64,000 nucleotides of DNA from Dehalococcoidia bacterium (GCA_009377745.1 WHTK01000016.1:1328-65327), one strand, 5' to 3'; shown: positions 4,196 through 56,875, counted from the first letter of the stretch. Notes: a model not told the origin generated them from the letters alone. Translations and numbers: made by a program.

Positions 4196-4660
4196 GTTTT
4201 GAAGTGGCAGATCGAGCTAGAGGACGACCAGCCAGGCCTACACGTCGCGGGCGTCCGCCCGCGTGATGTTGGCTCTGCGGCATCTCCGGCAATCGGTGTG
4301 CACCAGCAAGGACGCACGAATCGAACACACGTTCATTGCGGAAGATTCTACGTGCCCGACACGGGGATAGCAATAGCGCATAGGACAGATTGTCAAGCCG
4401 ATTGTCTACGGGATGCCTTCGTGCTCGATGTCCTCAAAGACAATCTTCGGAGTCCGGCGGTTTCATTCGGCCTCCCTCTAGGCTCTTTCGACATCCGGCG
4501 CTTCATATTCACGGTGAATGTGTCGGGTTCCTGCGTGGCCTACAGCCGATAGTACCTCCGATGCTCTCTGCGCGGAGCGGAGGATCGGCAGTCAGGGTGA
4601 GCCGTACCACGAAGGCATCTTCGGACCGCTGATCGATGATGCAGCGGTCGCTCTCATTGC

Positions 4661-5719
4661 CTACCCGCGTGGCCTTCTGACCCGCAGGTCGAGGCCGTCG
4701 AGATGATCGTAACTCCGTTCACGCTTCAGGCGTTCGTTCGTTGCCACGTGGCTGTACCTTTCCGTGACACTCGGTTGGGAGTGACCCATGAAGCGTTGCA
4801 GCGTCAGCGTCGGAATGCCGAGTTCGGAACTCCGTGTGCCGTAAGTGTGGCGTAGCAGGTGAGGATGAAGCCTGGCTATCCCCGTCTTCTTCGCTGCCCG
4901 CTTGAACGTCATCTCAAAGCTCGCGACCGTCATAGGGTAGCCGTCCCGGTTAAGGAAGAACTCACCCACGTTCGGCGTCGCCAGCTCGGGCCGATGGAGA
5001 AGGGTGTAGCGTTGGAGGACCCAGCCGACCTTGTGACCGAAGGGTATGGAGCGCTGCTTCTTTCCCTTGCCCCAGACCGTGATGAAGCCCTCGTCGATGT
5101 TCACTGCAGCGGCCTTGAGCCTAAGAATCTCGGCCCGCCGGAGGCCGGTCGAGAGCATGAGCATGAACAGGGCTTTGTCGCGACACTCTCCCGGCTTGAG
5201 CTCCGAGTAGGCGTTGAGCAGTTTGAGCTCCTCTGCGGTCGTCAGAGGTTGCAGCTCCTTTTCCTCCAGCTTGGGCATCTTCAACGATGCCATGATGTTC
5301 ACTGGCACGAGGCCCTCATCAAAGAGCCAGGAGGAGAAGCCTCGGACAGCTCGGTAGAAGCCGTGAATGTGACCGGCTGACGGCGGCTCTTCGGAGGGTC
5401 GCTTGAAGCGGTGGTCGCGGTACTTTCCCTCGGATTGCTTCTCAAGGATGAAGAAGCGAAAGCCGCCGATGTCGAGGTCCGCCAGCGTTGGTTCACGTTC
5501 CAGTCGGCCTTGAAGGTTGCTGACGAAGGGCGTGAGGCGCTGTTTGTACCAGGCGATGGTGTGCGGACTGAGATTACGGGCCCGGTAGGCCGCCTCGAAG
5601 AACTCGAGCGCCTTCCAAAGGCTGATGCGCGCCTGTGGCTGGCGCTCCCACAAAGATGTCGCGGTGTTGTTCATGGCCACCCCAGAATGCTGGTTCACAC
5701 CAAGCGACGTGCTCTTCAC
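4661..5719 (-). CDS. Tyrosine-type site-specific recombinase / phage integrase family
   Basis: 352 aa; C-terminal catalytic motifs ...LLRHTYGTRSSELGIPTLTLQRFMGHSQPSVTERYSHV; N-terminal SAM-like core-binding region (ISLWKALEFFEAAYRARNLSPHTIAWYKQRLTPF). Confidence 0.85.
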   Translation of the reverse strand: MKSTSLGVNQHSGVAMNNTATSLWERQPQARISLWKALEFFEAAYRARNLSPHTIAWYKQRLTPFVSNLQGRLEREPTLADLDIGGFRFFILEKQSEGKYRDHRFKRPSEEPPSAGHIHGFYRAVRGFSSWLFDEGLVPVNIMASLKMPKLEEKELQPLTTAEELKLLNAYSELKPGECRDKALFMLMLSTGLRRAEILRLKAAAVNIDEGFITVWGKGKKQRSIPFGHKVGWVLQRYTLLHRPELATPNVGEFFLNRDGYPMTVASFEMTFKRAAKKTGIARLHPHLLRHTYGTRSSELGIPTLTLQRFMGHSQPSVTERYSHVATNERLKRERSYDHLDGLDLRVRRPRG

Positions 5720-5757
5720 ACCTGCCGGACGTGAACTTCACGGTGGCCAACGCGAGA

Positions 5758-5819
5758 ATAGTCCGTTGGTCTATTTCAGTGAAAACCTCTCACCGAAATG
5801 TAAAATCTACCAACGGCTC
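5758..5819. promoter_or_regulatory. Inverted repeat pair TAGACCAACGG / CCGTTGGTCTA (arm-site or operator-like) between integrase start and tRNA fragment
   Basis: agtCCGTTGGTCTAtttc at 5758-5776 and aatcTACCAACGGctca at 5803-5819. An 18-bp exact copy (GAAATAGACCAACGGACT) recurs in inverse orientation at 50557-50574. Confidence 0.35.
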
Positions 5820-5839
5820 AGATGCAAAATCTGGGTAAA

Positions 5840-5896
5840 TGGTGGGCCCTCTGGGATTCGAACCCAGGACCGACGGATTAAGTGTCCGCTGCTCTA
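5840..5896 (-). tRNA. Partial tRNA-Lys-like 3' fragment (T-arm, acceptor 3' strand, CCA; mutated anticodon loop CACTTAA) - att-type remnant
   Basis: Revcomp gives ...TAGAGCAGCGGACACTTAATCCGTCGGTCCTGGGTTCGAATCCCAGAGGGCCCACCA. The 5' part upstream (GGTTCGCGCGGGATGAC) is not tRNA-like. Shares TAGAGCAGCGGAC..TTAA with the tRNA-Lys 5' half at 50621. Confidence 0.5.
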
Positions 5897-6263
5897 GTCA
5901 TCCCGCGCGAACCTGCCTCAAAGGCTGGCGCACGCGAAACCTTTCGACAGTTCCCGCCCGCACCGATCCGGATCGTCTCGCTGAGCTAGAGGATCGCCTA
6001 GCGAGTGCGAGACCGGTCAAGACCGACTAATTCGCGCGATTGGTAGGGAGGAACGAACCTATCCGAGGACCATCGGATCCGGGCCGGTCCGTCTGGTAAT
6101 CCAGCCGTGGCTGATTCCGATGTGTATGCCGAGTCAGGACGGCTGCCATAGAACTAGGAGTCTGACGGTGTCAGGCCGAGGTTCCCATACGAGTGAGGTC
6201 CCTGAGGCCAGCCCCTTAGTCGCGGGGCCGGTTGGCCGTTCCACCAAGACCCTCGGTGACTCG

Positions 6264-7201: not shown

Positions 7202-9569
7202 TTGGTTTCGTTGGTCGGTACCGATGCTAGGTGCGCGGCGCTGCCGGCGGAGAGCCGGATGGCCGGAGACCGAGCGGGGGCTAGCCTCCGTCCTGGCGGG
7301 CGCTGGCCCGGTTGCGCATTTTGGGCGCGCCGGTGGATCATTTGCCGCGTGACAGGATTCCGGCTGGTTCCAATGCTCGCCGCGGTCTTCGCCCTCGCCG
7401 CGACCGTCGGCGGTCTCGTCCTGCTCGTGAGTGAGGGGATCGCCCTCAGCGATCCTGTCGTCGAAGTCGTCGAGACGGGCTTCAGCACCACTCTCATCGG
7501 GCTGCTTCTGCTTTGGCAGCGGCCGGAGAACCGGATGGGCGGCATACTCATGGCCGCCGGGGTCCTCTTCGGGGTATCCACGCTCGCGGCGGGCGTCCTC
7601 GAGTCATCGGCCGGGCCACGGCTCGCAAGTGAGGCTGCCTTTGCGTGGATCTGGCTCGGCCAGGCCCCGCTCGCCCTGGTCTGGGCGCTGACGATCCTGG
7701 CCCTGCCCGATGGGAAGGTAGGAGGCGGGTTGCGGCGCAGCTTCCTGGCCGCGGCGGGCGTCATCTCGATCGGGCTCGCGACCGTCCAGTACGCCTTCGC
7801 GGGACAGGGACGGGTGCCCGAGTTCCCGCCCGCCCGGGCGCCTGCCGATCTGGCTGGACCGCTCGCCCACCTCGGCGGCTTGGAACCGCTCTATCAGTTG
7901 GGACAGGCCTTCTTCCCCGTGCTTCCCTTACTTGCCCTCCTCGGCCTGATCGCCCGCTTCCGTAGTGCCGACCCGGTCGTCCGCCAGCAGCTCAAGTGGG
8001 TGCTGCTCGCCGCGGCCCTGACCGTCCTCGCAAACGTCCTGCGCGTACTCCTTCACGCCGCCGGCGGTAGCCTCGATACGGCGGGCGCTGCCCTTGGTCT
8101 GGCCGCCTCGCCCCTGCCCGCGCTGGGCATCGCCTTCGCCGTCCTCCGCTACCGCCTGTGGGAGCTCGACCTGCTGGTCTCACGCGCCCTCATCTACGGG
8201 TTGCTCTCGTTGACGCTGGCGGCCGTCTTCCTGGCCGTCGCGCTCGCCGTCGGTCTCCTGGCCGGCGGCTCGGGCGTGCTCGTCCCGGTGGCGCTTGCAC
8301 TGCTTGTCGCGCTTGCGGCACAGCCGCTACGGTTGCGGCTGGAGCGGCTCGTGCGACGGCTCATCTACGGAGAGGAGCCGGCCGGCTACGCGGTCGTGGC
8401 CCGCTTCGGTGAAACCCTCACGGAGGCCGCCCGCGCCGGCGAGCTCGCGCCGCAGATCGCCGAGTCGGCGCGACGAGCGCTGCGGACGTCATGGGCTGGC
8501 GTCTGGCTGCGGGTCGAGTCCGGCGCCGCCGCGGCTCTCCGTCCGGCAGCTGTCGCCGGCGCGGACAATGGCGCGTCGGTACTCCTCGAGAAGGACGTCA
8601 TGGCTTGGCTCGCCTGTCTCTCCGGCCCTCTTCTCGCCAACGATGTCGCGTCCCAAGTGAGAGCTGCACTTGATCCCGTTTGGTGGCTGGAGCCGGCCGC
8701 ACTCGCTCCGCTCTCGGCCGGCAACGAACTGGTGGGCATCTTAATCTGCGGGGAGCGCGACGGCCGGCCGCTTGCCGTGCCTGACCTCGAGCTCATCGCC
8801 GTGCTCGCTCGCTCGGCCGCCCTCGCGCTCCGCAACCTGCGGCTCGAGGCCGAGCTCCGCAGCCGCCTTGAGGAGATCGAAGGGCAGGCGGAGGAGCTGC
8901 GCCGCTCACGGCGGCGACTCGTCACCGCCCAGGACACAGAACGCAGACGGATAGAGCGCGACCTCCACGACGGCATTCAGCAGCAACTCGTCAGTCTGGC
9001 AGCGAAGCTGACGCGCGCCTCTCGTTCCGCCCCCACTGAGGCCCAAGGGTTTCTGCGGGAGGCCGCCGCCGGACGCTGAGGAGTCTGTCTTCGCCCTACA
9101 AGAGCTCGCACGCGGCATCTACCCAAGCCTGCTTGCCGACCAGGGGCTCGCCGCCGCGATCCGCACTCACGCGAACCGGCTGCCGGCCGCGGTCCGGGTC
9201 GAGGTCGAGCCCACGCTCGCCGGACAGCGCTTCGGGCGTGAGGTCGAGGCGGCCTTCTACTTCGTCGCGCTTGAGGCGATGGCTAATGCCCAAAAGTATG
9301 CTGCAGAGGCGAGCCTGACTGTCTCGCTCAGAAGCACCGATGACGGAAGGCGCCTCGTCCTCGAGGTCCATGACGATGGCCCCGGCTTCGACCCGCGCCA
9401 CATCACGCACGGCGCGGGCCTCCAGAACATGGCTGACCGTCTCGCCGCTGTTGGCGGTACACTGACCGTGGATAGCCGGCCGGGGGCGGGCGTCTGGGTC
9501 CGCGCCGAGGCGCCGCTGGAGGCGCAGGTCGTGACCCTCAACGGCCGGGCGACTCCCGCAGGTAGATGA
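7202..9569 (+). CDS. Membrane sensor histidine kinase (multi-TM + GAF-like + HisKA_3 + HATPase_c), apparent +/-1 frameshift near 9070
   Basis: 625-aa ORF ends ...DLHDGIQQQLVSLAAKLTRA (HisKA_3 H-box). Kinase continues in another frame: ESVFALQELARGIYPSLLADQGL ... HATPase_c (LEVHDDGPGFDP...GLQNMADRLAAVGGTLTVDS) in ORF 9279-9569. Confidence 0.7.
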
Positions 9570-13749: not shown

Positions 13750-14230
13750 ATGACGATCAAAAGATTGGACCACGTCAGCGTCGTCGTCGACGCCCTTGCA
13801 GCCGCTAGCGCTTTTTTCACCGCGCTCGGGCATGACGCTCGAAGGCGAGACGCCGGTCGAGGGCCCGTGGGTCGATCGCATCAACGCGCTCGAAGATGTC
13901 CAGGTCGACATCGTTATGATGCGGACCCCAGATGGGCACGGGCGGCTTGAGCTGACGAAGTTTCGCAACGAAAGCGTGACAGATCAGCGCTTCCGCAACG
14001 TCCTGGAGAGCGCCGCCCGGCAGTTCGGCTCGACGCCCTCGAAGCCGCAGTCGGGGCGCGGCGTGGATTGTGCCCTCGCCTTCGATGTAGGTAGCTACGG
14101 CGGTGCCTGCTTCAAGCTCGATGTCTCCGGCAGCGAGGTCAACGTCGAGCGCGTTGTGCTGGCGGCCGATTGCGGCCAGATCGTCAACCCCGTCGGCGTC
14201 GAGAACCAGATCGAGGGCGCCATTGAATCA
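13750..14230 (+). pseudogene. Fragment mosaic: VOC/glyoxalase N-terminus (frameshifted) followed by aldehyde-oxidase/xanthine-dehydrogenase Mo-binding C-terminal fragment
   Basis: MTIKRLDHVSVVVDALAAASAFFTALG then, in another frame, VEGPWVDRINALEDVQVDIVMMRTPDGHGRLELTKF. Further on, VERVVLAADCGQIVNPVGVENQIEGA (CoxL/XdhB-like signature). Confidence 0.35.
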
Positions 14231-14956
14231 AACTATCCGTCGAGACGCGGGGGTGCTAAATCAATAGGTAGCACGATGACTTCCATGAGAAGGCTCCAAA
14301 ATAGAAAATTCCCGAGTGGTTCCCCGATTGTCTTGGATGACATAAGTCCAGACCAATCAGATTCAATGGCCTTTAACGGCCTTCCAATGGACTCTTTGAA
14401 GCGTCCCAGTGCGGCCTCATAACGCGAAGGTCAAGACGTTCGGTGACCAACCGTCCACCCAGAGTAATTACGGCCATCCTGGGACGGCCTAGCGACCAAG
14501 AAAGACTCGCCGCGCCCGTATCACGTCTTCTGGCGAGGTCCCTAATCCACAGTGAGCCTGCAAGTTTAATGGGGTTTGACCGGCTGCCGAACTCATAGCG
14601 GCGCTATCTTAGCGACTGACCGCCACTAGCTGGCTCGCGGGCAGCAGGTGAAGCACGTGACGACCTAACCATCCTCCATCCTTCGGCAGCGTCCTCGCAC
14701 AGTTGGACATGAAGGCTTCCTGAAGGTCCTTACCACTTGGGGACGGACTCGAACGTGCGACCAACTACTTGGAAGCAAAGGTTCATCGGGAGTTAGTCTA
14801 GCCTCGAAACCGCCTTCACGAGAACCCAGGGAGCGCGTCGGTTCGCCAAACTTGCCAACCGGCAACATGATGTTCACATGCCCGTCACTTGCCTGAAATA
14901 CGACCAGCCTAGATTCGATGCATTGGCCGTTCCCATAGAGGAGACGAGGTGCTGCA

Positions 14957-19520: not shown

Positions 19521-19723
19521 ATTGTCTGCGGGACAATGCCGGTTTTTTGAGCTACGCTTAGCGTCCCAGCAGACTCAAGAATGCTAGAATTTCATTGTCT
19601 CGGGGACAAAGCCCCCGGCGACCTGACTGAATTTCGAGGACGGTTTCGCGGTTTGAGACTAACCCCCGATAACCCTTGCTTCCAAGCAGGCTGTCGCGGG
19701 TTCGAGTCCCGTCCCCCGCTCCA
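19521..19723 (+). repeat. Repeat A1: two ATTGTC-N5/6-GACAA palindromes (19521-19537, 19593-19610) followed by tRNA 3'-end-like core (19673-19723, canonical T-arm + acceptor + CCA)
   Basis: attgtctgcgggacaat ... cattgtctcggggacaaag ... ccttgcttccaagcaggctgtcgcgggttcgagtcccgtcccccgctcca; homologous to 23284-23468 and (3' part) to the tRNA-like gene at 24748. Confidence 0.6.
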
Positions 19724-19888
19724 TTTACCCAGATTTTAGATTGAAACCAGGTCCAGTTTCCGATTGTTTGTGTAGTTTCCCGCTGTTGCCGAACGCGGGT
19801 AAGATGTCAGTTGCCCAGTAGGGCCGACCGTCGAGGAGCGGGTGGAACCACTCCTTCTTCGAGAGGAAAAAACCAAGGCGTCGTCTGG

Positions 19889-21031
19889 TTAGCCAGCGCC
19901 AACTCTCTCGGTAACACCGATGCCGCTATCGCTTTCCTCCCTTGGCTCGCGCGCCCTCCGTGCAATGGCTTTCGCTATCCTCACAGCGTCCCGGCCCACG
20001 CCATGGATCATCGAGGACGAGGCGGCGTACAGGAAGGACAAGCCGACGAAGTACAGACCCGGCTCGTCTGGTACTATGCCACGCTCGTGAATCGGCCCCC
20101 CATCTTTGAAAATTGGGAGGTCAATCCAGGAGAAACCAGGGTAAAACCCCGTGCACCAGACCACATTGGTCACTTCCAAAATGCGGCCGTCCTCGAGCAC
20201 CGGCCTTCCGTCCTGGACGCCGACAGTCCGCGGGACGCGCTCGACCCCGGCCAACGCTAGATCTTTGGGTTTGGTCCGTAGCAGCGGCATGCCGTGAGAG
20301 AGGACCTTGGCGCGGACCTTCCGGCCAATGGGCGTGTCCACTGTTAGCAAGCGGTGGAAAAGCACGCGCAACACCAAGCGTATGAGCAAATAACGCGCCG
20401 CGGTTCCCTCGATGTTGAACGGCACATGGCCTGTGTCGTTACCAGACATCCAGGTGCGGTGACCGCGCGCTGCTTCAAGGGCGATTTCGGACCCGGAGTT
20501 GCCGGCTCCAACGATTAACACAGCGCCATCTCGGAGTTGCGATGGGTTTCGATAATCGCTCGAGTGAAGCTGCACGATACTGGCGTCCAGTTTCCGCGCA
20601 AACTCAGGGATCCTCGGTCGCTGCCAGTTCGACATCGCTACGACCACGTTTTCGGCCTCGAATGTGGACTCGCTTGTCCTGAGGACGAACCGTTCCCGCT
20701 CCCGCGATAGGCCTACTACATTTATTCCGGTTCTTACCGGGAGCTCGAAATGCTCGGCGTACGCCTCGAGGTAGTCCGCCATCTGGTTCTTCGTGGGAAA
20801 CACATGCGTTGGGGAAGGGAAAGGCATACCGGGCAGGGCATCGTAACAAGCGGGCGTAAACAGACGGAGCGAGTCCCAGCGCTGCCGCCACGAATCTCCT
20901 ACCCGCTCATTGCCATCTAGGATGACGAATGGTTGGCCTAGGCGCGCAAGATAGTAGCCAACGGAAAGACCCGCCTGGCCCGCGCCGATCACTATCGTCT
21001 GAAACCTCTCAGGTTGAGTTGTAGCGCTCAC
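19889..21031 (-). CDS. Flavin-containing monooxygenase-like NAD(P)/FAD-binding oxidoreductase (COG2072-type)
   Basis: N-terminal IVIGAGQAGLSVGYYLARLG dinucleotide fold; second GAGNSGSEIALE motif. Confidence 0.75.
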   Translation of the reverse strand: MSATTQPERFQTIVIGAGQAGLSVGYYLARLGQPFVILDGNERVGDSWRQRWDSLRLFTPACYDALPGMPFPSPTHVFPTKNQMADYLEAYAEHFELPVRTGINVVGLSRERERFVLRTSESTFEAENVVVAMSNWQRPRIPEFARKLDASIVQLHSSDYRNPSQLRDGAVLIVGAGNSGSEIALEAARGHRTWMSGNDTGHVPFNIEGTAARYLLIRLVLRVLFHRLLTVDTPIGRKVRAKVLSHGMPLLRTKPKDLALAGVERVPRTVGVQDGRPVLEDGRILEVTNVVWCTGFYPGFSWIDLPIFKDGGPIHERGIVPDEPGLYFVGLSFLYAASSSMIHGVGRDAVRIAKAIARRAREPREESDSGIGVTERVGAG

Positions 21032-21128
21032 TTTGGCCTCCTTGATTCAGAGAGCGGTAGCCGAAGTGGTTAGGGGCGCGCCTTGTGTCGGGGCGCCCCT
21101 AACCACTTCTCGAGGTAGACTTCGCGAC

Positions 21129-21575
21129 TCAGGCCGAAGCAGGCACGGGCGCCTGGATCAGGCCCAGTTGGCGGAAGATGTCGAGCGTGTCACAGATCTC
21201 CCATTCCTCGACGATCTTTCCGCCCTCGACGCGGCAAGCGTTCATCGTCCAGCGGATGTCGATGCTCCGGCCCGTCGGAGGTATCTCCCCGAATGGTCCT
21301 GTGTGCGTGCCCTGCATTCGGACCCTGCTGAAGACACGGTCGCCCTCGCCGAAGATATCCTCGACTGTCACCTTGAGGTCTGGAGCTGCCGTCATGTAGC
21401 GCTGAAGGTGGGCCTTGATGTTCTCCCGGCCCCGGACCTCGCCCTGCGAGTCGTAGTAGACGGCATTCTCGGCGTAGAAGCCGTCAAACGCCGAGAGGTC
21501 GCGCCTGTTCGCCGCCTCCCAGCAGCCAAGCACTACTTTCTTGTTGTCTTCAACCACAGCCTTCCTCCTATTCAT
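21129..21575 (-). CDS. SnoaL-like / NTF2-fold ester-cyclase family protein
   Basis: 148 aa; KVVLGCWEAANRRDLSAFDGFYAENAVYYDSQGE...GKIVEEWEICD pattern. Confidence 0.6.
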   Translation of the reverse strand: MNRRKAVVEDNKKVVLGCWEAANRRDLSAFDGFYAENAVYYDSQGEVRGRENIKAHLQRYMTAAPDLKVTVEDIFGEGDRVFSRVRMQGTHTGPFGEIPPTGRSIDIRWTMNACRVEGGKIVEEWEICDTLDIFRQLGLIQAPVPASA

Positions 21576-21676
21576 TTGCCGGGACCCAGTTCCCGGTTCC
21601 TGAAGGCATTCTCAAAGCAGGAGGAAGGCGGCGCATGGGGCGATCGCCCTAATTTGGAGCAGCTTCTAGGGAAGGG

Positions 21677-23248
21677 TTAGCTGGGGATTGGTTCTGCGAT
21701 CAGCCCGTGTTGGACGGCGAAGAGCGTAGCGCCGACGCGCGTCGATACGCCGATCTTGCTGTAGATGTTCTCGAGGTGATGTCCCACAGTCTTGGGCGCG
21801 AGGAAAAGCGCTTCAGCTATCTGGCGGTTGGAAAGGCCGCGCACTGCAAGGCAAAGAACTTCCACTTCTCGTTCGCTAAGACCGGCAGGCAACGGTCGCT
21901 TATCGCGCTGAGGCTGATGTCCGGCCGCGCTGAGGAGCGCCTCGACTACGTCGCGGTCGAGCTTGCCATGATCGGCCTGTCTGCGCACCTCATCTGCTGC
22001 GAGCTCAGGTGTCATCGCCTCGCGGTGAGGACGCGGCTCGAGCTTGCTCTGGTAAGTATCCGCGGCCGCAAGGATCCGGGCGGTGAGCGGAAGCGAGGTG
22101 GCGGAGAGTCCACGATAGCCGGAACCGTCGAGCTTCTCGTGGTGTAGGCCGGCGAGCGTCCCCAAGTGGCCAAGGGAACTGGAGCGGGCGAGCACAATCT
22201 CAGTGAGCGAAGGATGCCGTTTCATGCGCTCCCACTCCTCGCCACTGAGCGGCTCTGTTTTATTCCAGAAGGAGACAGGTGCGCCCGCACGGCCCAAGTC
22301 ATGCAGCAGGCCTGCGTGTCGAAGTGCCATCGCCTCGCTCGCAGGAACTCCAAGCGCTAGGGCCGCTCGTTCGGCAAGGGAGGCGACCATAGGGGAATGG
22401 CCGACAGTGTACGGCGAACGCATATCGATAAAGTTGGCGACCTTGCAGGCGACCTCATCGAACTGAGCGAAAGAGAGGAGTCGCGGGGGAGCCGGTTCAA
22501 CACTCAGTACAGCATCCCAGGCCGACTCAGACTGGAGCCGATTGAGAAGCGCTGCCCCGACCGCGCTGAATCGCTCGGCGATGCGAGGGTCGTAGATCTT
22601 GCCGGCTCGCTTGCGCACCACTGTGAGGGCAGCGTCGGCGCCACCCAGCCGGTTGAATACCTCGACGTCTTGAGCCAGGATGAAGATCCGTGCGGCGAGG
22701 TGGATTTCCTCCCCCTTGAGCCCCAATACGGGTCCCTTGCCGTTCCAATGCTCGTCGCACTGACCCAGAGCTTCCTTAATTGCGGGGCCGAGGTCGAGCA
22801 AGCCGCCGACGTGCAGCGCAACGTCACGGCATATTGCCTGCGACTGTCTGCCCAAGGACAAGAGCTTGGTGAGGCGTCGCAAAGGGGGGTCACCGGCGCC
22901 TGCATGGCGCAGAAAGAACGCTGCGACCTTTAGCGGCTGCGATGGGTCGAGCATGGCCATCTCTTCGCGTACGGCGATTTCGTCCTTGACGAAGCCCGCG
23001 AAGGCCGAGCCATCCAGCACACAGCCGACGCTGCCGAGGAGAGCGACGTAGTAGGCATCGCTCAGGTCCCGCTGACTGAGGCCAAGCTCCTCGCCCAGCC
23101 AGACTGCCAGCAGTGTGCGCCGCAGGCTATGCTCAAGCGGCTGGCCCTCGGCCAAGTCCGTGGCGAGGGCCAGCGAGGCGATGACATCCGCCATGCGAAC
23201 GGTGGGCGCGGTGGCTTGTCTGTCCGCCATACCGGCTGTTGTTGTCAC
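21677..23248 (-). CDS. HD-GYP-type phosphohydrolase domain fused to C-terminal LuxR HTH regulator
   Basis: HDLGRAG...HHEKLDGSGYRG (HD-GYP) and LSEREVEVLCLAVRGLSNRQIAEALFLAPKTVGHHLENIYSKIGV (LuxR HTH). Confidence 0.7.
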   Translation of the reverse strand: MTTTAGMADRQATAPTVRMADVIASLALATDLAEGQPLEHSLRRTLLAVWLGEELGLSQRDLSDAYYVALLGSVGCVLDGSAFAGFVKDEIAVREEMAMLDPSQPLKVAAFFLRHAGAGDPPLRRLTKLLSLGRQSQAICRDVALHVGGLLDLGPAIKEALGQCDEHWNGKGPVLGLKGEEIHLAARIFILAQDVEVFNRLGGADAALTVVRKRAGKIYDPRIAERFSAVGAALLNRLQSESAWDAVLSVEPAPPRLLSFAQFDEVACKVANFIDMRSPYTVGHSPMVASLAERAALALGVPASEAMALRHAGLLHDLGRAGAPVSFWNKTEPLSGEEWERMKRHPSLTEIVLARSSSLGHLGTLAGLHHEKLDGSGYRGLSATSLPLTARILAAADTYQSKLEPRPHREAMTPELAADEVRRQADHGKLDRDVVEALLSAAGHQPQRDKRPLPAGLSEREVEVLCLAVRGLSNRQIAEALFLAPKTVGHHLENIYSKIGVSTRVGATLFAVQHGLIAEPIPS

Positions 23249-23283
23249 AGCGAGATGCTACCAGAGCAGCCAAGCTCCTGTGT

Positions 23284-23468
23284 GATTGTCTGTCAGACAA
23301 TGCAGAATTTCGCATCTGCTCTAGCTTCGAGCCAGACTCGTTGATGCTAAAATTTCATTGTCTCGGGGACAAAACCCCCGGCGACCTGCCTGAATTTCGA
23401 AAAGGCGCTTTCGCGGTGCAGGAGTGACCCCCGACATCCTTGCTTCCAAGCAGGCTGTCGCGGGTTCG
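23284..23468 (+). repeat. Repeat A2: two ATTGTC-N-GACAA palindromes (23284-23302, 23355-23373) + truncated tRNA 3'-like core (23438-23468)
   Basis: gattgtctgtcagacaatg ... cattgtctcggggacaaaa ... ccttgcttccaagcaggctgtcgcgggttcg then diverges. Confidence 0.6.
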
Positions 23469-23505
23469 TCGGTGATTTTCTTCAAGGTCTCCCAGCCTCC
23501 ACCTG

Positions 23506-23955
23506 TTACGCTAATAGCCGTCGAATTGCTTCTCTCTGTTCATCAACTGCAAACGTTACAAGCCCTCTAAGTGCCTTTTCACTGACAGACCGGGGCATCA
23601 CTGGATCACCTAGCGCCCTAACCTTGTCTTTCACATCCACAGCGAGGCTGAGAAGGGTCAGCGCTTGGGTTACGCGGGCACGGGAGACGCCTAGCTTTCG
23701 CGCGAGGTCAGCCCGTGAGCGCACCTCCCCGGCGACAATCCGTTGCTGCCATTCTTCTGCCAAGATAACGGGATTGCGCTGCTGGCGCTCAGGCTTGGCC
23801 GCCTCCTTAAGAACCAAGACCGGTGAGGCGGAGCTCCTTGTTTCGCTAAACTTAAACTCGTGTGACTGGCGCGCCCCTTGATAGGATGATCGAAGCGTCG
23901 CCAATACGCTAAGCTTCAGGGAAGTTCGGGTTTTCCCCCGGCCTGGGGGAGCCAA
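23506..23955 (-). CDS. ParB-HTH-only protein (central ParB/Spo0J HTH domain, no N-terminal CTP-binding domain) - repeat-module copy 1
   Basis: ...KPERQQRNPVILAEEWQQRIVAGEVRSRADLARKLGVSRARVTQALTLLSL..; conserved N-terminus RTSLKLSVLATLRSSY. Palindromic upstream 23956-23980 and divergent leader ATGACTCGGGACAAAGG at 23987. Confidence 0.6.
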   Translation of the reverse strand: MAPPGRGKTRTSLKLSVLATLRSSYQGARQSHEFKFSETRSSASPVLVLKEAAKPERQQRNPVILAEEWQQRIVAGEVRSRADLARKLGVSRARVTQALTLLSLAVDVKDKVRALGDPVMPRSVSEKALRGLVTFAVDEQREAIRRLLA

Positions 23956-24747
23956 TTTAACACATATGTTCTAGACTGGTGCGATGACTCGGGACAAAGG
24001 TGATCGGTCTCCGAAGGTAGTGCAGCGGCGTGACGCGCTTGAGTAAGGACCCTCTGGAGGTCATAGAGCGCTCTCCTTGCAGAAGCTGGTGAGCGCTCCT
24101 ACCGTTCAGAATGGCTTATGATCAGCATCAGGCGAATTCCGAATGCTGTCACGTGCCTCCGACTCCAGTCGCTGCTAAGACGTAACCTGCAACGGAACCG
24201 CCCTTACATTTAGGGCCTCCCGTGTTCGCGCTTTCTACTGCCCGCAAAGTGCTTCAGGAGCGGCCGTTGGGATCCAATTCGTGCTCTGTGCAGTATTCTC
24301 AATCAGCATTCGGCGTTGGCGCCTGGCGTGAAAGGAGCTTGAGGGAGTTGCTCGATGACCGAGAGGCGAATGTTCGTTGGCCCAACGAATCCGAGTGCAG
24401 AACCTATTTGTACACTTGACCGGGAAACGGCTCTAGCGCGGCAGGAACCGCCGGACAGATTTCTCGACTCAGCCTTTGATCAGAAGGCCATGGCTACAGG
24501 TATAGAGTATCGGTTTCGGCAATCGGACGACCTATGGGACAGGGCGCAGACTTTCATCAAGGAAGAGGCGTTGTGTTGCCCGTTCCTCGGTTTTGAAGTC
24601 GCAGAGCGAGACCAAACGTGGTACTAAGAATCTTTCGGCCGGAGATAAGCGTCGACTAAAGGTTCAACGGTCGGGCGGCCGTCTGGGATGAGCAGCCGGG
24701 TTACAATCCCTTGTTCTTGGAGCCCTTCCGGTCTTCTGCGCTACAAT

Positions 24748-24823
24748 TGCCAAATCTGCGCGGGGGTAGCTCAGTTGGTGGAGTACGTGCCTTCCACGCC
24801 AGGCTGCCGCGAGTTCGAGTATC
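24748..24823 (+). tRNA. tRNA-like gene (canonical 5' half, degenerate 3' half; anticodon arm non-canonical, loop contains TTCCA) - probable tRNA pseudogene or indel-affected tRNA
   Basis: GCGGGGGTAGCTCAGTTGGTGGAGTA... ...GAGTTCGAGTATCGTCCCCGCTCCA. Acceptor pairs but T-stem has a G-A mismatch and the C-run is one nt shorter than in repeat A1. Downstream 13 nt (tttacccagattt) also shared with A1. Confidence 0.45.
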
Positions 24824-24982
24824 GTCCCCGCTCCATTTACCCAGATTTCCGAGTCGAACCACGACACCCTCCGAATAGGTATGTGTCGGTGATTGTTCAG
24901 CCAGCTTCTACCACGAGCAAGCTCTCGCGCGGTACGCCTGGTTAAATTGGTCGTCCGCTAATCGTCCGCTGCTCCAATATCA

Positions 24983-28954: not shown

Positions 28955-29803
28955 CTACGGCGACCAGGGCCGAGCCGGATTCGTGAATGCGCCGCGCCCA
29001 ATGAAGGAGCCTTTACTTGCAAGCTCTTCCTCGATCTCAAGCAAGCGGTTGTACTTGGCTGTACGTTCACCCCTCGCCGGGGAACCGGACTTGATCTGCG
29101 CGGCGCCAGTAGCGACGGCGAAGTCGGCTATGAATGCGTCGTCCGTCTCGCCTGAGCGGTGGCTGATGACACAGTTCCAGTCGGCCTCGTGACTGAGATT
29201 TACTGCCTCTAACGTCTCTGTGAGCGTACCGATCTGATTCAGCTTGATGAGACTGCTGTTGCATGCCCTCAGTTCTATCGCCTTCCGAATCCTTTGCGGG
29301 TTCGTTACGAGCAGGCCATCGCCGACGATCTGGCACTGCGCGCCCAGGCGTGACGTAAGGGAACTCCAGCCCTGCCAATCGTCCTGAGCTAGGCCGTCCT
29401 CGATTGAGCAGATCGGGAATCGTCTCGACCAGTCCCACCAGAAGGCAATCATGTCGTTGGTGTCGAGGACGGAACCTTCCTTCTTGAGGCTGTAGCTGCC
29501 ATCCTCGTGCAGTTCGTCCGTGGCCGGATCAAGCGCTATCACGATGTCTTCTCCGGGCCGATAACCGGCCCGCTCGATCGCAACGAGGACTGCCTCGATC
29601 GCCGCCTCATTATTGGGCAAAGACGGTGCGAAGCCGCCTTCATCGCCGACTCCACCTCTGATGCCCCGTTCGTGCAGCAGATTACTCGGCTGGGGCTGCC
29701 AGTTCCCTATGACCCAAACCTGCTCATCGAAGCCGTGCGCGATCTCGTGAACCTTGGCATGGCATGGGTAGAAGAGGAAGGACCGGAGCGGAAGATTTAC
29801 CAC
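28955..29803 (-). pseudogene. Enolase (phosphopyruvate hydratase) lacking the N-terminal ~140 residues - truncated copy
   Basis: GGVGDEGGFAP...SLIKLNQIGTLTETLEAV...SHRSGETDDAFIADFAVATGAAQIKSGSPARGERTAKYNRLLEIEEEL are enolase C-terminal barrel motifs; the ORF N-terminus is non-enolase sequence. Confidence 0.65.
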
Positions 29804-34096: not shown

Positions 34097-34576
34097 CTAT
34101 TTGGACTCTTCACTGCATCGGTCGCCTTGAATGCCTCCCAACATGCCGCGCAGAAGACCTTCGGTCGCTAGCCATTGTTGATTCGGTGGCAGTGCCACGA
34201 GTAGCCGGAGGGCTCGTTCGCCAACTGCCGGTGACACCAATGGGTCGCCGAGTGATCTCACTGTGTCGACAACGCGGGGCGTTAGCTGGAGGAGGCCCAG
34301 CACCTGCGTAACCCTAGCTCGGGAAACGCCAAGCTCGCGCGCTAGAGCCGCCCTCGAGCTTACCTCCCCATCAACCAGTCGCTGCTGCCACGCTTCGGCA
34401 ACAACGATGGGGTTACGCTGTTCACGCTTGGGCTTGGCTGGCTCTGCGACAAAGAGCAACGGTCTAATGCCGATCCGAGCTTCGCCAAACTCGAAGTTTG
34501 GTGCTGAGCTAGAGTGCTTGTAGAATGACCGAAGCGTTGCGAATACGCTAAGCTTCAGCGGAGTTCGGGTGTTCAC
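34097..34576 (-). CDS. ParB-HTH-only protein - repeat-module copy 2
   Basis: VNTRTPLKLSVFATLRSFYK...KPKREQRNPIVVAEAWQQRLVDGEVSSRAALARELGVSRARVTQVLGLLQLTPRVVDTVRSLGDP; conserved upstream ggctccgcgagccgggtgaacac + palindrome aacatatatgtt (34585-34600). Confidence 0.6.
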   Translation of the reverse strand: MNTRTPLKLSVFATLRSFYKHSSSAPNFEFGEARIGIRPLLFVAEPAKPKREQRNPIVVAEAWQQRLVDGEVSSRAALARELGVSRARVTQVLGLLQLTPRVVDTVRSLGDPLVSPAVGERALRLLVALPPNQQWLATEGLLRGMLGGIQGDRCSEESK

Positions 34577-34723
34577 CCGGCTCGCGGAGCCAACTTAACA
34601 TATATGTTCTGGCGGGCCGCGTTCGTCCATGGCGCGGTGGCCTTCAAAGCCGATCTTAGCGGAAGTTGCAAGCCGAACGCTGCAGCGTCCTATGATTGAG
34701 TTGAGTCCAAGAGACCTGCCGGG

Positions 34724-44543: not shown

Positions 44544-45020
44544 TCACCACCGTGAAAGCCGACCGCGCTCCCTTCCGAGAAGCTTCTGCACTGCTTGCCA
44601 TCGTTCCGTAGGGGGCAATTCCAGCAGTCGTCGCAGGTCGCGCTCGCCCACCGTCGGTGAAGTCAACGGATCTCCCAAGCACCTCACAGCGTTGATGACC
44701 TCCGGAGTGAGGTGCAGGAGGGCGAGTACCTGCGTAACCCTGGCGCGGGAAACGCCGAGTGCTCGCGCAAGCTCAGCCCTTGATTTCACTTCCCCGCCGA
44801 TGATTCGGTCCTGCCACTCCTCGGCCAGAACAATGGGGTTACGCCGCTCGGGTTTGGGCTTGCTCGGCTCCGCAAGACGCAGCCGAGAAACCGTAGCGGC
44901 AGCATGGTCCTCAAACTCGAAATGCATTCCAGACTTGGAACGCTTGTAGAATGACCGGAGCGTTGCGAATACGCTTAGCTTCAGGAGAGTTCGGGTGTTC
45001 ACCCGGCTCGCGGAGCCACA
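44544..45020 (-). CDS. ParB-HTH-only protein - repeat-module copy 3 (long ORF runs to 45278; likely GTG start near 45015)
   Basis: VNTRTLLKLSVFATLRSFYKRSKS...KPERRNPIVLAEEWQDRIIGGEVKSRAELARALGVSRARVTQVLALLHLTPEVINAVRCLGDP. Upstream palindrome + divergent leader ATGACTCAGGACAAAGG at 45048. Confidence 0.6.
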   Translation of the reverse strand, partial: CGSASRVNTRTLLKLSVFATLRSFYKRSKSGMHFEFEDHAAATVSRLRLAEPSKPKPERRNPIVLAEEWQDRIIGGEVKSRAELARALGVSRARVTQVLALLHLTPEVINAVRCLGDPLTSPTVGERDLRRLLELPPTERWQAVQKLLGRERGRLSRW

Positions 45021-45445
45021 TAATACATATGTTCTAACAGGCAGGGAATGACTCAGGACAAAGGTCGTCGCTCTCCGAAGATGGCGCTGCGGATGGTATT
45101 GCCGGTTCTCGATCCTCCTCTGTCCAGAACCATCCTTGATGAACGGCAAGAGAAGCAGCCCCCTTTCGAAATCCGACAAACTCCAGGGCAGCGAAGACAA
45201 GAACAAGAAGCGAGCAGCTCCGTAATTTGACTCTGCCCCTTGGGTTGCCCTCGAAAGCGGAAGCCTTCGCCAAGACATAGTGACCTAATCAGCTTTTCGT
45301 TATATGTTCTCCGATGCCCTGCCTCTCACGGCCCTTGGGAGAATCGCGCTGGGCTGATCATCGCGGCAAGGCCGGTAGGGGTAACGACCGACCGGCTGGT
45401 CGTCACCCCTACCGGCCAACGGAAGGACGATCCCCGGGCGATCGG

Positions 45446-49924: not shown

Positions 49925-50412
49925 GTTCATGGCCTTGAGACATGGGATTCCTTCTTCTCTCTGCTCATCAACTGCGAACGATGCAAGCCCTCTAAGCGCC
50001 TTTTCACTAACAGACCGGGCATCGGATCGCCTAGCGCCCTAACCTTGTCATTCACATCCACAGCGAGGTGAGCAGGGTCAGCGTTTGGGTCACGCGGGCA
50101 CGGGAGACGCCGAGCGTTCGGGCGAGATCAGCCTTTGAGCGCACCCCGCCGTCGGCGAGGCCGTCGCTGCCACTCCTCGGCCAGGACGATGGGGTTACGC
50201 TGCTCGCGCTTGGGCTTGACCGGCTCCCTGAGAACAAGCCGTGGTGCCGTACGTGCGGCGAGATCGCCAAACTCGAACTGCGGTGATGACTTGGAGCGCT
50301 TGTAGAATGACCTGAGCGTCGCGAATACGCTAACCTTCAGGAGAGTTCGGGGTTTCACTCGGCTCGGGGAGCCAATATAACACAGATGTTCTAAAATGAC
50401 CGCGATGCTCAA
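49925..50412 (-). pseudogene. ParB-HTH-only gene - repeat-module copy 4, frameshifted
   Basis: ORF 50128-50412 gives VKPRTLLKVSVFATLRSFYKRSKSSPQFEFGD...KPKREQRNPIVLAEEWQRR then garbage. ORF 50052-50270 in another frame gives ...KADLARTLGVSRARVTQTLTLL. The 3' region is about 90% identical at nt level to 23506-23700. Confidence 0.5.
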
Positions 50413-50556
50413 GAACCTTGATGATCAGCAACCTCATGGGAAGACACGTCAAGACCAGGCGCACGCGGTCGCGCCGTCAGTTGCCGGGGGAGTCGTCTCG
50501 CTAGCGTCTGCCTGACCAACGGCCGCAAACGGTTGTAAACTCTCCAGAGAGCGGCC

Positions 50557-50574
50557 GAAATAGACCAACGGACT
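50557..50574 (+). repeat. 18-bp box GAAATAGACCAACGGACT, exact inverted copy of 5758-5775
   Basis: Direct comparison of both loci; both lie next to tRNA-Lys-like fragments. Confidence 0.6.
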
Positions 50575-50620
50575 TACGTCGAAGTCCCACGGTGGCGCGG
50601 CCGTCTCAGATTCAAAACAG

Positions 50621-50657
50621 GGGCCTCTAGCTCAGCGGTAGAGCAGCGGACTTTTAA
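50621..50657 (+). tRNA. 5' half of a tRNA-Lys(UUU) gene (acceptor 5' strand, D-arm, anticodon stem 5' strand and loop CTTTTAA); 3' half absent locally
   Basis: GGGCCTCTAGCTCAGCGGTAGAGCAGCGGACTTTTAA then non-tRNA sequence. Combining with the 3' fragment at 5840-5896 reconstitutes a nearly canonical cloverleaf (one C-A mismatch in acceptor). Confidence 0.55.
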
Positions 50658-50681
50658 CCTCCTGGTGCGGCAGGCAATCAA

Positions 50682-56699: not shown

Positions 56700-56875
56700 A
56701 CCGGAGAAGAGCGCTTAAATTGGTGTGCCGAACGAGAGCGCCTCTCGAATGACCGAAGCGTCGCCAATACGCTAAGCTGCAGAAGAGTTCGGGTCTTCCC
56801 CCGGCTCGCGGAGCCAACATAACATATTTGTGCTAATCGCAGACGATGCCTAAGAACCTTTGAGATAATCAGCAT
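56700..56875 (-). pseudogene. ParB-HTH-only gene - repeat-module copy 5, 5' fragment only
   Basis: GKTRTLLQLSVLATLRSFERRSRSAHQFK then non-homologous. Upstream palindromic region (56805-56830) and divergent leader homologous to copy 4 (gatgcctaagaaccttt vs gatgctcaagaaccttg). Confidence 0.45.

Follow-up and report, generated by a model that had tools for sequence, protein, structure and literature searches.

Palindrome-bearing arms fused to tRNA-Gly(UCC) 3′ halves: candidate attachment-site junctions of integrative elements in a Dehalococcoidia genome

Why should a pair of palindromes be found twice within a few kilobases, each time fused to the 3′ end of a tRNA, with a tRNA-like gene of the same 3′ sequence further downstream? 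The question is raised by a 64-kb stretch of a Dehalococcoidia metagenome-assembled genome (hereafter the window; coordinates are counted from its first letter), with a G+C content of about 60%, in which two direct repeats, A1 and A2, show this arrangement. We consider it probable, though well short of certain, that A1, A2 and a decayed third copy, A4, are element-side attachment-site (att) junctions of integrative elements that recombined in the anticodon loop of tRNA-Gly(UCC). Integration scars made of tRNA fragments are long established; the present locus adds to them an arm bearing palindromes, which is modestly unusual, and an integrase-less cassette.

The tRNA-Gly core in repeats, pseudogene and inverted copy

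The direct repeats named in the original prediction are borne out by alignment: A1 (19521-19704) and A2 (23285-23468) are 79% identical over 186 nt in blastn, with a mean column identity of 81% in MAFFT. Their homology opens sharply with the first palindrome and extends as far as GGGTTCG in the T arm, and the flanks differ. In an nhmmer search the profile of the stretch preceding the tRNA part (the A arm) matched A1, A2, a copy in the related contig L104 and, marginally, A4, and nothing else. The tRNA part had been described as canonical in A1 and truncated in A2, and both descriptions are accurate. In A1 it comprises an anticodon arm, a perfect T arm, the CCCCCGC acceptor strand and CCA (19675-19723), and is 92% identical to the 3′ 50 nt of an intact tRNA-Gly in the related contig L106, while in A2 it ends after GGGTTCG, inside the T arm.

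When all tRNA-Gly-related pieces are aligned, the anticodon-loop heptamer TTCCAAG is the sole segment that they have in common. To the left of it the A copies carry their own arm sequence, and to the right of it the tRNA 3′ half; in all copies the switch from arm to tRNA thus falls on a recognised crossover sublocation for tRNA-targeting elements. The core CTTGC-TTCCAAG-CAGG mimics an anticodon stem-loop, with the difference that its left flank CTTGC is shifted by one base relative to the CTTGCC-TTCCAAG of the real tRNA, the anticodon “loop” being one base shorter. This core, CTTGCTTCCAAGCAG, was matched three times (in A1, in A2 and, with two mismatches, in A4), against 0.17 expected. In the T stem, A1 and A2 have GCGGG/CCCGT where L104 and L106 have GCGAG/CTCGT, a compensatory pair from which it follows that the halves derive from functional tRNAs.

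The tRNA-like gene downstream of the repeats has the canonical 5′ half and degenerate 3′ half that had been claimed for it, but its coordinates are 24760-24835, shifted 12 nt rightward from those first given (24748-24823). It is a pseudogene, failing as a functional tRNA in several respects: it scores 22.7 bits against the Rfam tRNA model, under the gathering score of 29, it is not called by ARAGORN, and its minimum free energy (MFE) structure is not a cloverleaf (z = -0.73). Its identity to the intact tRNA-Gly of L106 is 86%. ARAGORN found no callable tRNA gene anywhere in the window. A1, A2 and the pseudogene share one orientation, with the full-length copy downstream of the fragments, and A4 is inverted. 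Between A1 (19679-19749) and the pseudogene region (24791-24861) the identity is 83% over 72 nt in blastn; this includes the 13 nt after CCA, TTTACCCAGATTT, which had been described as common to both. Pairwise alignment, the check proposed for A1, A2 and the tRNA region, thus returned a shared core together with shared flanks, and not a set of independent pseudogenes.

A4 is 82% identical to 19641-19716 over 77 nt (blastn). Genes for nitrogen assimilation are found at 14.9-19.2 kb (P-II-like, molybdopterin oxidoreductase domain, MFS, nitrite/sulfite reductase and P-II). Since A4 is inverted relative to A1, this cluster is flanked by outward-pointing inverted tRNA-Gly 3′ halves, which suggests an inversion or a composite structure.

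The segment between A1 and A2 contains no recombinase detectable by Pfam or tblastn, and the two cores are directly oriented around it, the arrangement by which cis-mobilizable elements (CIMEs) are recognised. These 3.5 kb look like an att-flanked cassette which, as it contains no integrase, would be movable only in trans. The coordinates of these features, and of those discussed below, are given in Table 1.

Table 1. Positions of the putative junctions, their parts and associated features in the 64-kb window
Feature	Position	Strand	Remarks
Cluster of three ATTGTC hexamers, including ATTGTCTACGGGA	4389-4444 (starts 4389, 4401, 4439(-))	+	217-272 bp downstream of the integrase stop
Sole tyrosine integrase gene of the window	4661-5719	-	Pfam Phage_integrase, E = 1e-35
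tRNA-Lys 3′ fragment (5840-5896, D-stem 3′ strand to CCA), then TTTACCCAGATTT (5827-5839)	5827-5896	-	
A4, decayed inverted copy	14739-14812	-	Last ~35 nt of the arm, core and tRNA-Gly 3′ half
A1 arm (putative element-side P arm)	19521-19674	+	Palindrome 1 ATTGTCTGCGGGACAAT 19521-19537; palindrome 2 ATTGTCTCGGGGACAAA 19594-19610
Extended -10-like TGCTAGAAT in the A1 arm	19582-19590	+	
A1 core CTTGC-TTCCAAG-CAGG and tRNA-Gly(UCC) 3′ half to CCA	19675-19723	+	
A1 post-CCA arm (putative P′ type)	19724-19749	+	Opens with TTTACCCAGATTT
Integrase-less segment between A1 and A2	19750-23284	-	Flavin monooxygenase-like 19889-21031; SnoaL-like 21129-21575; HD_5 + GerE/LuxR regulator 21677-23248 (Pfam)
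A2: A arm, core and cut tRNA 3′ half	23285-23468	+	Palindromes 23285-23301 and 23357-23373; core 23439-23453
ParB-HTH module copy 1, one of five in the window	23506-23973	-	Adjoins the truncated end of A2
tRNA-Gly(UCC) pseudogene, putatively attL-type	24760-24835	+	Genuine 5′ half, decayed 3′ half
Post-CCA arm TTTACCCAGATTT... after the pseudogene	24836-24861	+	
tRNA-Lys(UUU) 5′ half	50621-50657	+	Cut just after the anticodon loop

Related contigs and the resident integrase family

Two sets of related contigs were compared with the window: L104, L105 and L106, which carry the operon of the HD-GerE regulator (HD_5 + GerE/LuxR), and L006-L010 and L101-L103, which carry homologs of the integrase. 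The L104 regulator is 89% identical to that of the window, and the contig is colinear at 86% with window positions 20238-23468. Its counterpart of A2 is complete through the T arm, the acceptor strand and CCA, and a separate tRNA-Gly 5′ half ending at TTCCAAGC lies about 1.17 kb further on the same strand. In L106 (regulator 85% identical) ARAGORN calls a tRNA-Gly(tcc) at 1371-1445, 220 nt upstream of the regulator gene, with no palindromes and no A arm. The intact target without element sequence, for which related genomes had been suggested as the place to look, is therefore present in one of them. A 15-nt scar, CTTGCTTCCAAGCAG, is located 37 nt upstream of this intact tRNA-Gly. Neither tRNA-Gly sequence nor an A arm was found in L105, whose regulator is 75% identical.

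The integrase homologs with at least 60% identity number about 30 and are all metagenomic; a scan of genome contigs yielded only relatives at no more than 33% identity. Five homolog loci (L006, L008, L010, L102 and L103) show tRNA sequence, and in each of them it is tRNA-Lys or tRNA-Arg sequence that adjoins the integrase. The integrase is immediately preceded in three of the homolog loci by a gene for tRNA-Lys or tRNA-Arg or by the 5′ half of one, cut at the anticodon loop: L006 has a full tRNA-Lys in this position, and L010 has a tRNA-Arg(UCU) 5′ half cut after the anticodon loop. In L102 (integrase 85% identical) the sequence runs from tRNA-Lys through CCA, ATTACCCAGATTTTG and about 130 nt to the integrase gene. 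A tRNA-Arg(UCU) 3′ half, from the anticodon arm to CCA, is also found about 50 nt past the integrase stop in L101 (1130-1175), L102 (1285-1325) and L103 (1130-1180). In the window itself, the tRNA-Lys fragment and TTTACCCAGATTT lead directly into the integrase gene, and this fragment (5840-5896) is the only tRNA sequence of the window beside which an island-borne integrase is situated. The tRNA-Gly 3′ ends of L104 and L106 are followed after CCA by unrelated trailers and not by TTTACCCAGATTT; as TTTACCCAGATTT and ATTACCCAGATTTTG lie beside integrases and the tRNA-Gly trailers differ, the motif travels with the element and not with the tRNA.

From these states we infer the following nature of the junctions. 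Each copy would consist of an arm of about 155 bp, beginning at palindrome 1, followed by the anticodon-mimicking core and then by the tRNA 3′ half. A1 would be a complete, attP-like hybrid junction (P-O-P′), as between two tandem elements, because after CCA it enters the TTTACCCAGATTT arm of the resident integrase family. A2 and the L104 copy would be attR-type junctions (P-O-B′), A2 having later lost its T-arm end beside the ParB-HTH module (ParB-like, helix-turn-helix). The pseudogene at 24760-24835 would be of attL type (B-O-P′), with the 5′ half of the original tRNA and with a 3′ half and TTTACCCAGATTT that were supplied by the element and have since decayed. The original prediction spoke of att-type junctions with tRNA-derived cores, left by successive integrations. 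The anticodon-loop switch, the post-CCA arm, L104 and L106 agree with such junctions and with more than one event, but the order of the junctions and the inverted A4 do not agree with simple successive integration at one tRNA.

Several observations weigh against taking A1, A2 and A4 for att junctions at tRNA-Gly(UCC). No tRNA-Gly-specific integrase was found, the sole integrase being paired with a tRNA-Lys fragment, and tblastn over the window detected no integrase similarity outside 4661-5719, with none near A1, A2 or the pseudogene. Along the tRNA strand, both in the window and in L104, the order is attR-type, about 1.2-1.3 kb, attL-type; this is the reverse of what a single integration gives, so that a second target or a rearrangement is needed. 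In addition, A4 is inverted relative to A1, and the tRNA of L106 reads toward the HD-GerE gene, whereas the tRNA half of the window and of L104 reads away from it. No single consistent history of integration and inversion could be derived from the window, L104 and L106. Across the metagenome, plasmid, phage, viral-contig and profile searches, the A arm was found in two genomes only, those of the window and L104, and between A2 and L104 the palindromes agree at 16/17 and 15/17 positions, no better than the background of about 85%. The plasmid, phage and viral-contig searches, made with the arm, the core and the integrase, returned nothing relevant.

Some side observations were made around the integrase genes. 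The tRNA-Arg 3′ half past the integrase stop is followed by a conserved leader and a small open reading frame (ORF) in L101, L102 and L103, the three closest of the homologs fetched. The motif GAAATAGACCAACGGACT, which resembles the D-stem/anticodon-stem region of tRNA-Lys, is found both on the minus strand (region 5720-5846), 41 nt before the integrase start, and on the plus strand (region 50540-50662), 62 nt before the tRNA-Lys 5′ half. In L006, L008, L010 and L102 a core-like inverted repeat formed by this motif immediately precedes the integrase gene, and the motif could serve as an integrase operator. Two small palindromes, GATCCGGATC and ATCCGAGGACCATCGGAT, at 5966-5975 and 6063-6080, are found upstream (minus strand) of the tRNA-Lys fragment; they are spaced from tRNA-Lys roughly as the A-arm palindromes are from the core, and have no sequence similarity to the A arm. 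A third arm in this region (5898-6130) was considered and rejected, as its alignment score was within the shuffle range and the arm profile gave no match.

Palindromes, their candidate binders and other explanations

The form ATTGTC-N(2-6)-GACAA occurs in the 64 kb at 19521, 19594, 23285 and 23357 only (6 strand-matches, against 0.07 expected), and all four ATTGTC-N5-GACAA sites of the window fall in A1 and A2. Two palindromes had been predicted in each repeat, correctly, but they are not about 65 bp apart as had been stated: the start-to-start distance is 72-73 bp, with a gap of 57 nt. Between A1 and A2 the palindrome half-sites are kept and the spacers changed, and identity reaches about 93% in the 56 nt around palindrome 2, as compared with about 50-65% in the stretches on either side. 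This pattern suggests constraint. The hexamer ATTGTC as such is not enriched in the window (25 found, 21 expected), and is clustered in A1, A2 and 4389-4444; ATTGTCTNNGGGA was found four times, against 0.02 expected. The ATTGTC sites that had been noticed downstream of the integrase are indeed a real three-hexamer cluster (4389, 4401 and 4439(-)), but the A-arm profile has no match there, and the cluster is not a copy of the A arm. An arm proposed at 4380-4560 was likewise rejected, with no match to the arm profile and a local alignment score within the shuffle range.

A scan of metagenomes for the double-palindrome architecture produced 90 loci, none of them A1-like by blastn and nearly all of them tandem iteron-like arrays. 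Unrelated metagenome contigs (L011-L090) commonly contain ATTGTC-N5-GACAA sites in pairs, 45-70 nt apart, mostly as tandem iteron- or centromere-like arrays with a period of 21-90 bp. The half-site motif is therefore a widely used protein-binding dyad and is not specific to the element.

The position of the arm next to a regulator gene raises the possibility that it was chromosomal to begin with. The A arm would then be the promoter/operator of the HD-GYP/LuxR operon, containing or adjoining an anticodon-like secondary integration site; A1-type junctions would be attL sites formed at a pseudo-attB, to which the element contributed the tRNA 3′ half and TTTACCCAGATTT, and the extra copies would have arisen by segmental duplication. 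The arm does abut the HD-GerE start codon in the window and in L104, with the start codon 37-55 bp from palindrome 1. In the window, L104, L105 and L106 alike, a conserved TAGCAT hexamer precedes the HD-GerE gene (23255-23260, minus strand, in the window), and palindrome 1 is situated 24 bp upstream of it. This is the position, relative to TAGCAT, in which LuxR-type (lux) boxes sit. A core with a 6-nt loop is also found on its own in L106. The lux-box-like arrangement of palindrome 1 and TAGCAT is, however, restricted to the window and L104, since the orthologs in L106 (85%) and L105 (75%) have neither palindromes nor arm before them. Moreover, the A1 arm is adjoined by no HD-GerE gene, its left neighbour being the 3′ end of the P-II gene, and the homology of A1 and A2 starts sharply at palindrome 1 between differing flanks. 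A chromosomal promoter as the source of the arm is on this evidence unlikely.

That the palindromes might be bound by the integrase itself, as arm-type sites like those of lambda attP, was part of the original prediction. They are indeed part of the arm, and their distance from the core is constant; the ATTGTC cluster downstream of the integrase gene could be taken in the same sense. The integrase (337-352 aa), however, matches only a catalytic domain and, weakly, a SAM-like core-binding domain, resembling XerC/XerD at scores below the cut-offs of those models (Pfam, NCBIfam), and in the same two collections no arm-binding domain family matched it at E <= 0.01; the palindromes are therefore unlikely to be its arm-type sites. 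Dyad-symmetric 6-5-6 sites are typical of dimeric helix-turn-helix (HTH) proteins and not of lambda-type arm sites, and the five loci fetched for the nearest integrase homologs, L006-L010, are without palindrome sites. Arm-type sites of the integrase thus seem very unlikely to us. Because of the 6-5-6 dyad symmetry and because no arm-binding domain was detected in the integrase, a role as operators of a dimeric HTH protein is, to judge from the sequence, the likelier one for the palindromes, and the nearest candidate binder is possibly the HD-GYP/LuxR regulator beside A2.

Palindrome 2 begins 3 nt downstream of an extended -10-like element, TGCTA(G/A)AAT, which is conserved in A1 and A2 and faces the core. 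If this TGCTAGAAT element were the start of a structured non-coding RNA whose 3′ end is tRNA-like, its conservation would be accounted for, as would a 3′ end made of a perfect T arm and CCA. Against this, no Rfam family reached its gathering score in the whole window and no relevant match at E <= 10 was found for the region; the MFE z-score is just -1.24; A2, which is without the T arm, still retains the arm sequence; and a simple promoter scan found no promoter with both hexamers in A1 or A2. We regard such an RNA as highly improbable. Chance resemblance, or independent tRNA pseudogenes without shared history, has in its favour only that tRNA fragments are generally abundant in prokaryotic genomes (PMC9897764), and can be dismissed with near certainty, as shuffle controls gave an expectation of about zero for the palindrome pairs, the core and the post-CCA motif, and the idea is already refuted by the shared flanks of the copies, which have some 155 bp of non-tRNA arm in common.

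The ParB-HTH module, of about 440 bp, is present in the window in five copies (23506-23973, 34167-34610, 44593-45037, 49954-50393 and 56714-56836), the fifth of which retains only the upstream block. It consists of a small minus-strand ParB-HTH-like gene and a very conserved upstream block of about 110 nt, ending sharply at ...CATATGTTCTA(R). The proteins match phrog_14161, “recombinase”, at E = 5e-10 and ParB HTH models weakly. Unrelated cargo genes separate the modules, which are spaced 5-10 kb apart in the manner of end pieces on stacked cassettes. At L104 1-110 the tRNA-Gly 5′ half cut after TTCCAAGC is joined to ...CAAATGTTCTAG, which matches the end of the block at 11/12 positions, a match not significant alone and only positionally suggestive of the block being an element end.

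A palindrome half-site had also been reported from the leaders of ParB-module copies 1 and 3, and a sequence of this kind does recur there, as CTCGGGACAAAGG at 23988 and, with one mismatch, at 45052, in both copies directly after an ATG able to open a short divergent reading frame. Relative to palindrome 2, however, a G is missing from it, which amounts to an indel, and it has no ATTGTC partner half-site. The link from the palindromes to the ParB-HTH proteins is accordingly weak: binding by these proteins, as originally put forward, is unsupported, depending as it does on one non-palindromic 13-mer with an indel relative to palindrome 2.

The window as a whole has the look of a patchwork of accessory genes, several of them truncated (Pfam and ORF scans). 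Among those that appear truncated, 28955-29803 has only the C-terminal domain of an enolase, a GAF/HisKA_3 protein at 7202-9079 stops inside its kinase domain, and 13796-14422 is a molybdopterin-binding fragment; these genes are consistent with a decaying island region. More speculatively, and in our estimation with little probability, the unit of about 230 bp made up of arm, core, tRNA 3′ half and post-CCA arm might be a portable att module for the capture, stacking and reshuffling of integrase-less cassettes at tRNA anticodon loops. The window would then be an integron-like cassette array on tRNA-mimicking sites, with movement gated through the palindromes by the signal-sensing HD-GYP/LuxR regulator and with the five ParB-HTH modules as cassette end pieces.

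Significance and comparison with known systems

If the att-junction reading is true, the 64 kb described here, from an uncultured Dehalococcoidia, form a mosaic of integrative elements in decay, and their builder would be a small, rarely sampled family of tyrosine integrases acting at the anticodon loops of tRNA-Lys, tRNA-Arg and, as it would seem, tRNA-Gly. The exact cores and arms can be used to delimit islands in related metagenome-assembled genomes, and the tRNA-Gly pseudogene is flagged here because annotation pipelines may miscall it. The palindrome arm beside the HD-GYP/LuxR regulator is a testable candidate for signal-controlled regulation at an island end.

Among known systems, lambda-type attP sites go together with an integrase that has an N-terminal arm-binding domain, which the resident integrase does not display. 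At the island end of ICEclc, the outward-facing promoter Pcirc reportedly drives the integrase only in the circular form. The promoter-like element of the A arm is reminiscent of it in pointing across the att core, toward the position that the integrase takes in this integrase family; it differs from Pcirc in being an extended -10-like motif only, with no -35 hexamer and with no integrase downstream of A1.

In anatomy there is a close likeness to Islander-type tRNA islands, for which crossover in the anticodon loop is a well-documented sublocation (the Islander “A” sublocation; Williams 2002, cited in PMC4383910). The features in common are a tRNA-associated family of tyrosine integrases, a displaced tRNA fragment at the junction, a crossover centred on the 7-nt anticodon loop, tandem arrays, and an element-borne 3′ part of the tRNA followed by an element arm. 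The present locus differs in having no integrase beside the tRNA-Gly junctions and a regenerated tRNA that is a pseudogene, in the reversed order of its junctions, in one inverted copy, in an element-side core that is one base short, and in an arm with two dyad-symmetric sites.

CIMEs and accretion of tandem islands are a category discussed for the ssrA islands of Dehalococcoides (PMC3146451). The 3.5-kb gene set between A1 and A2 resembles a CIME in its directly oriented att-type sites, in the lack of a recombinase of its own and in the other island remnants nearby. Unlike in CIMEs, mobility in trans is putative here and the right-hand site, A2, is truncated in the window genome, so that the cassette is probably fixed now.

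The ssrA islands themselves use the serine recombinase DsiB and a 20-bp repeat of the ssrA 3′ end (PMC3146451), whereas the elements considered here would use a tyrosine integrase and have the anticodon loops of tRNA-Gly and tRNA-Lys as targets. No transfer-messenger RNA (tmRNA) was matched in the window and no serine-recombinase domain among the ORFs scanned, the 20-bp ssrA repeat not having been searched for. The two systems are nevertheless alike in belonging to the same bacterial class and in their tandem islands at one small-RNA gene, and among the components of the ssrA-island integration modules are likewise a ParB-domain protein and a pseudo-tRNA that resembles tRNA-Gly and has a shortened anticodon loop (PMC3146451).

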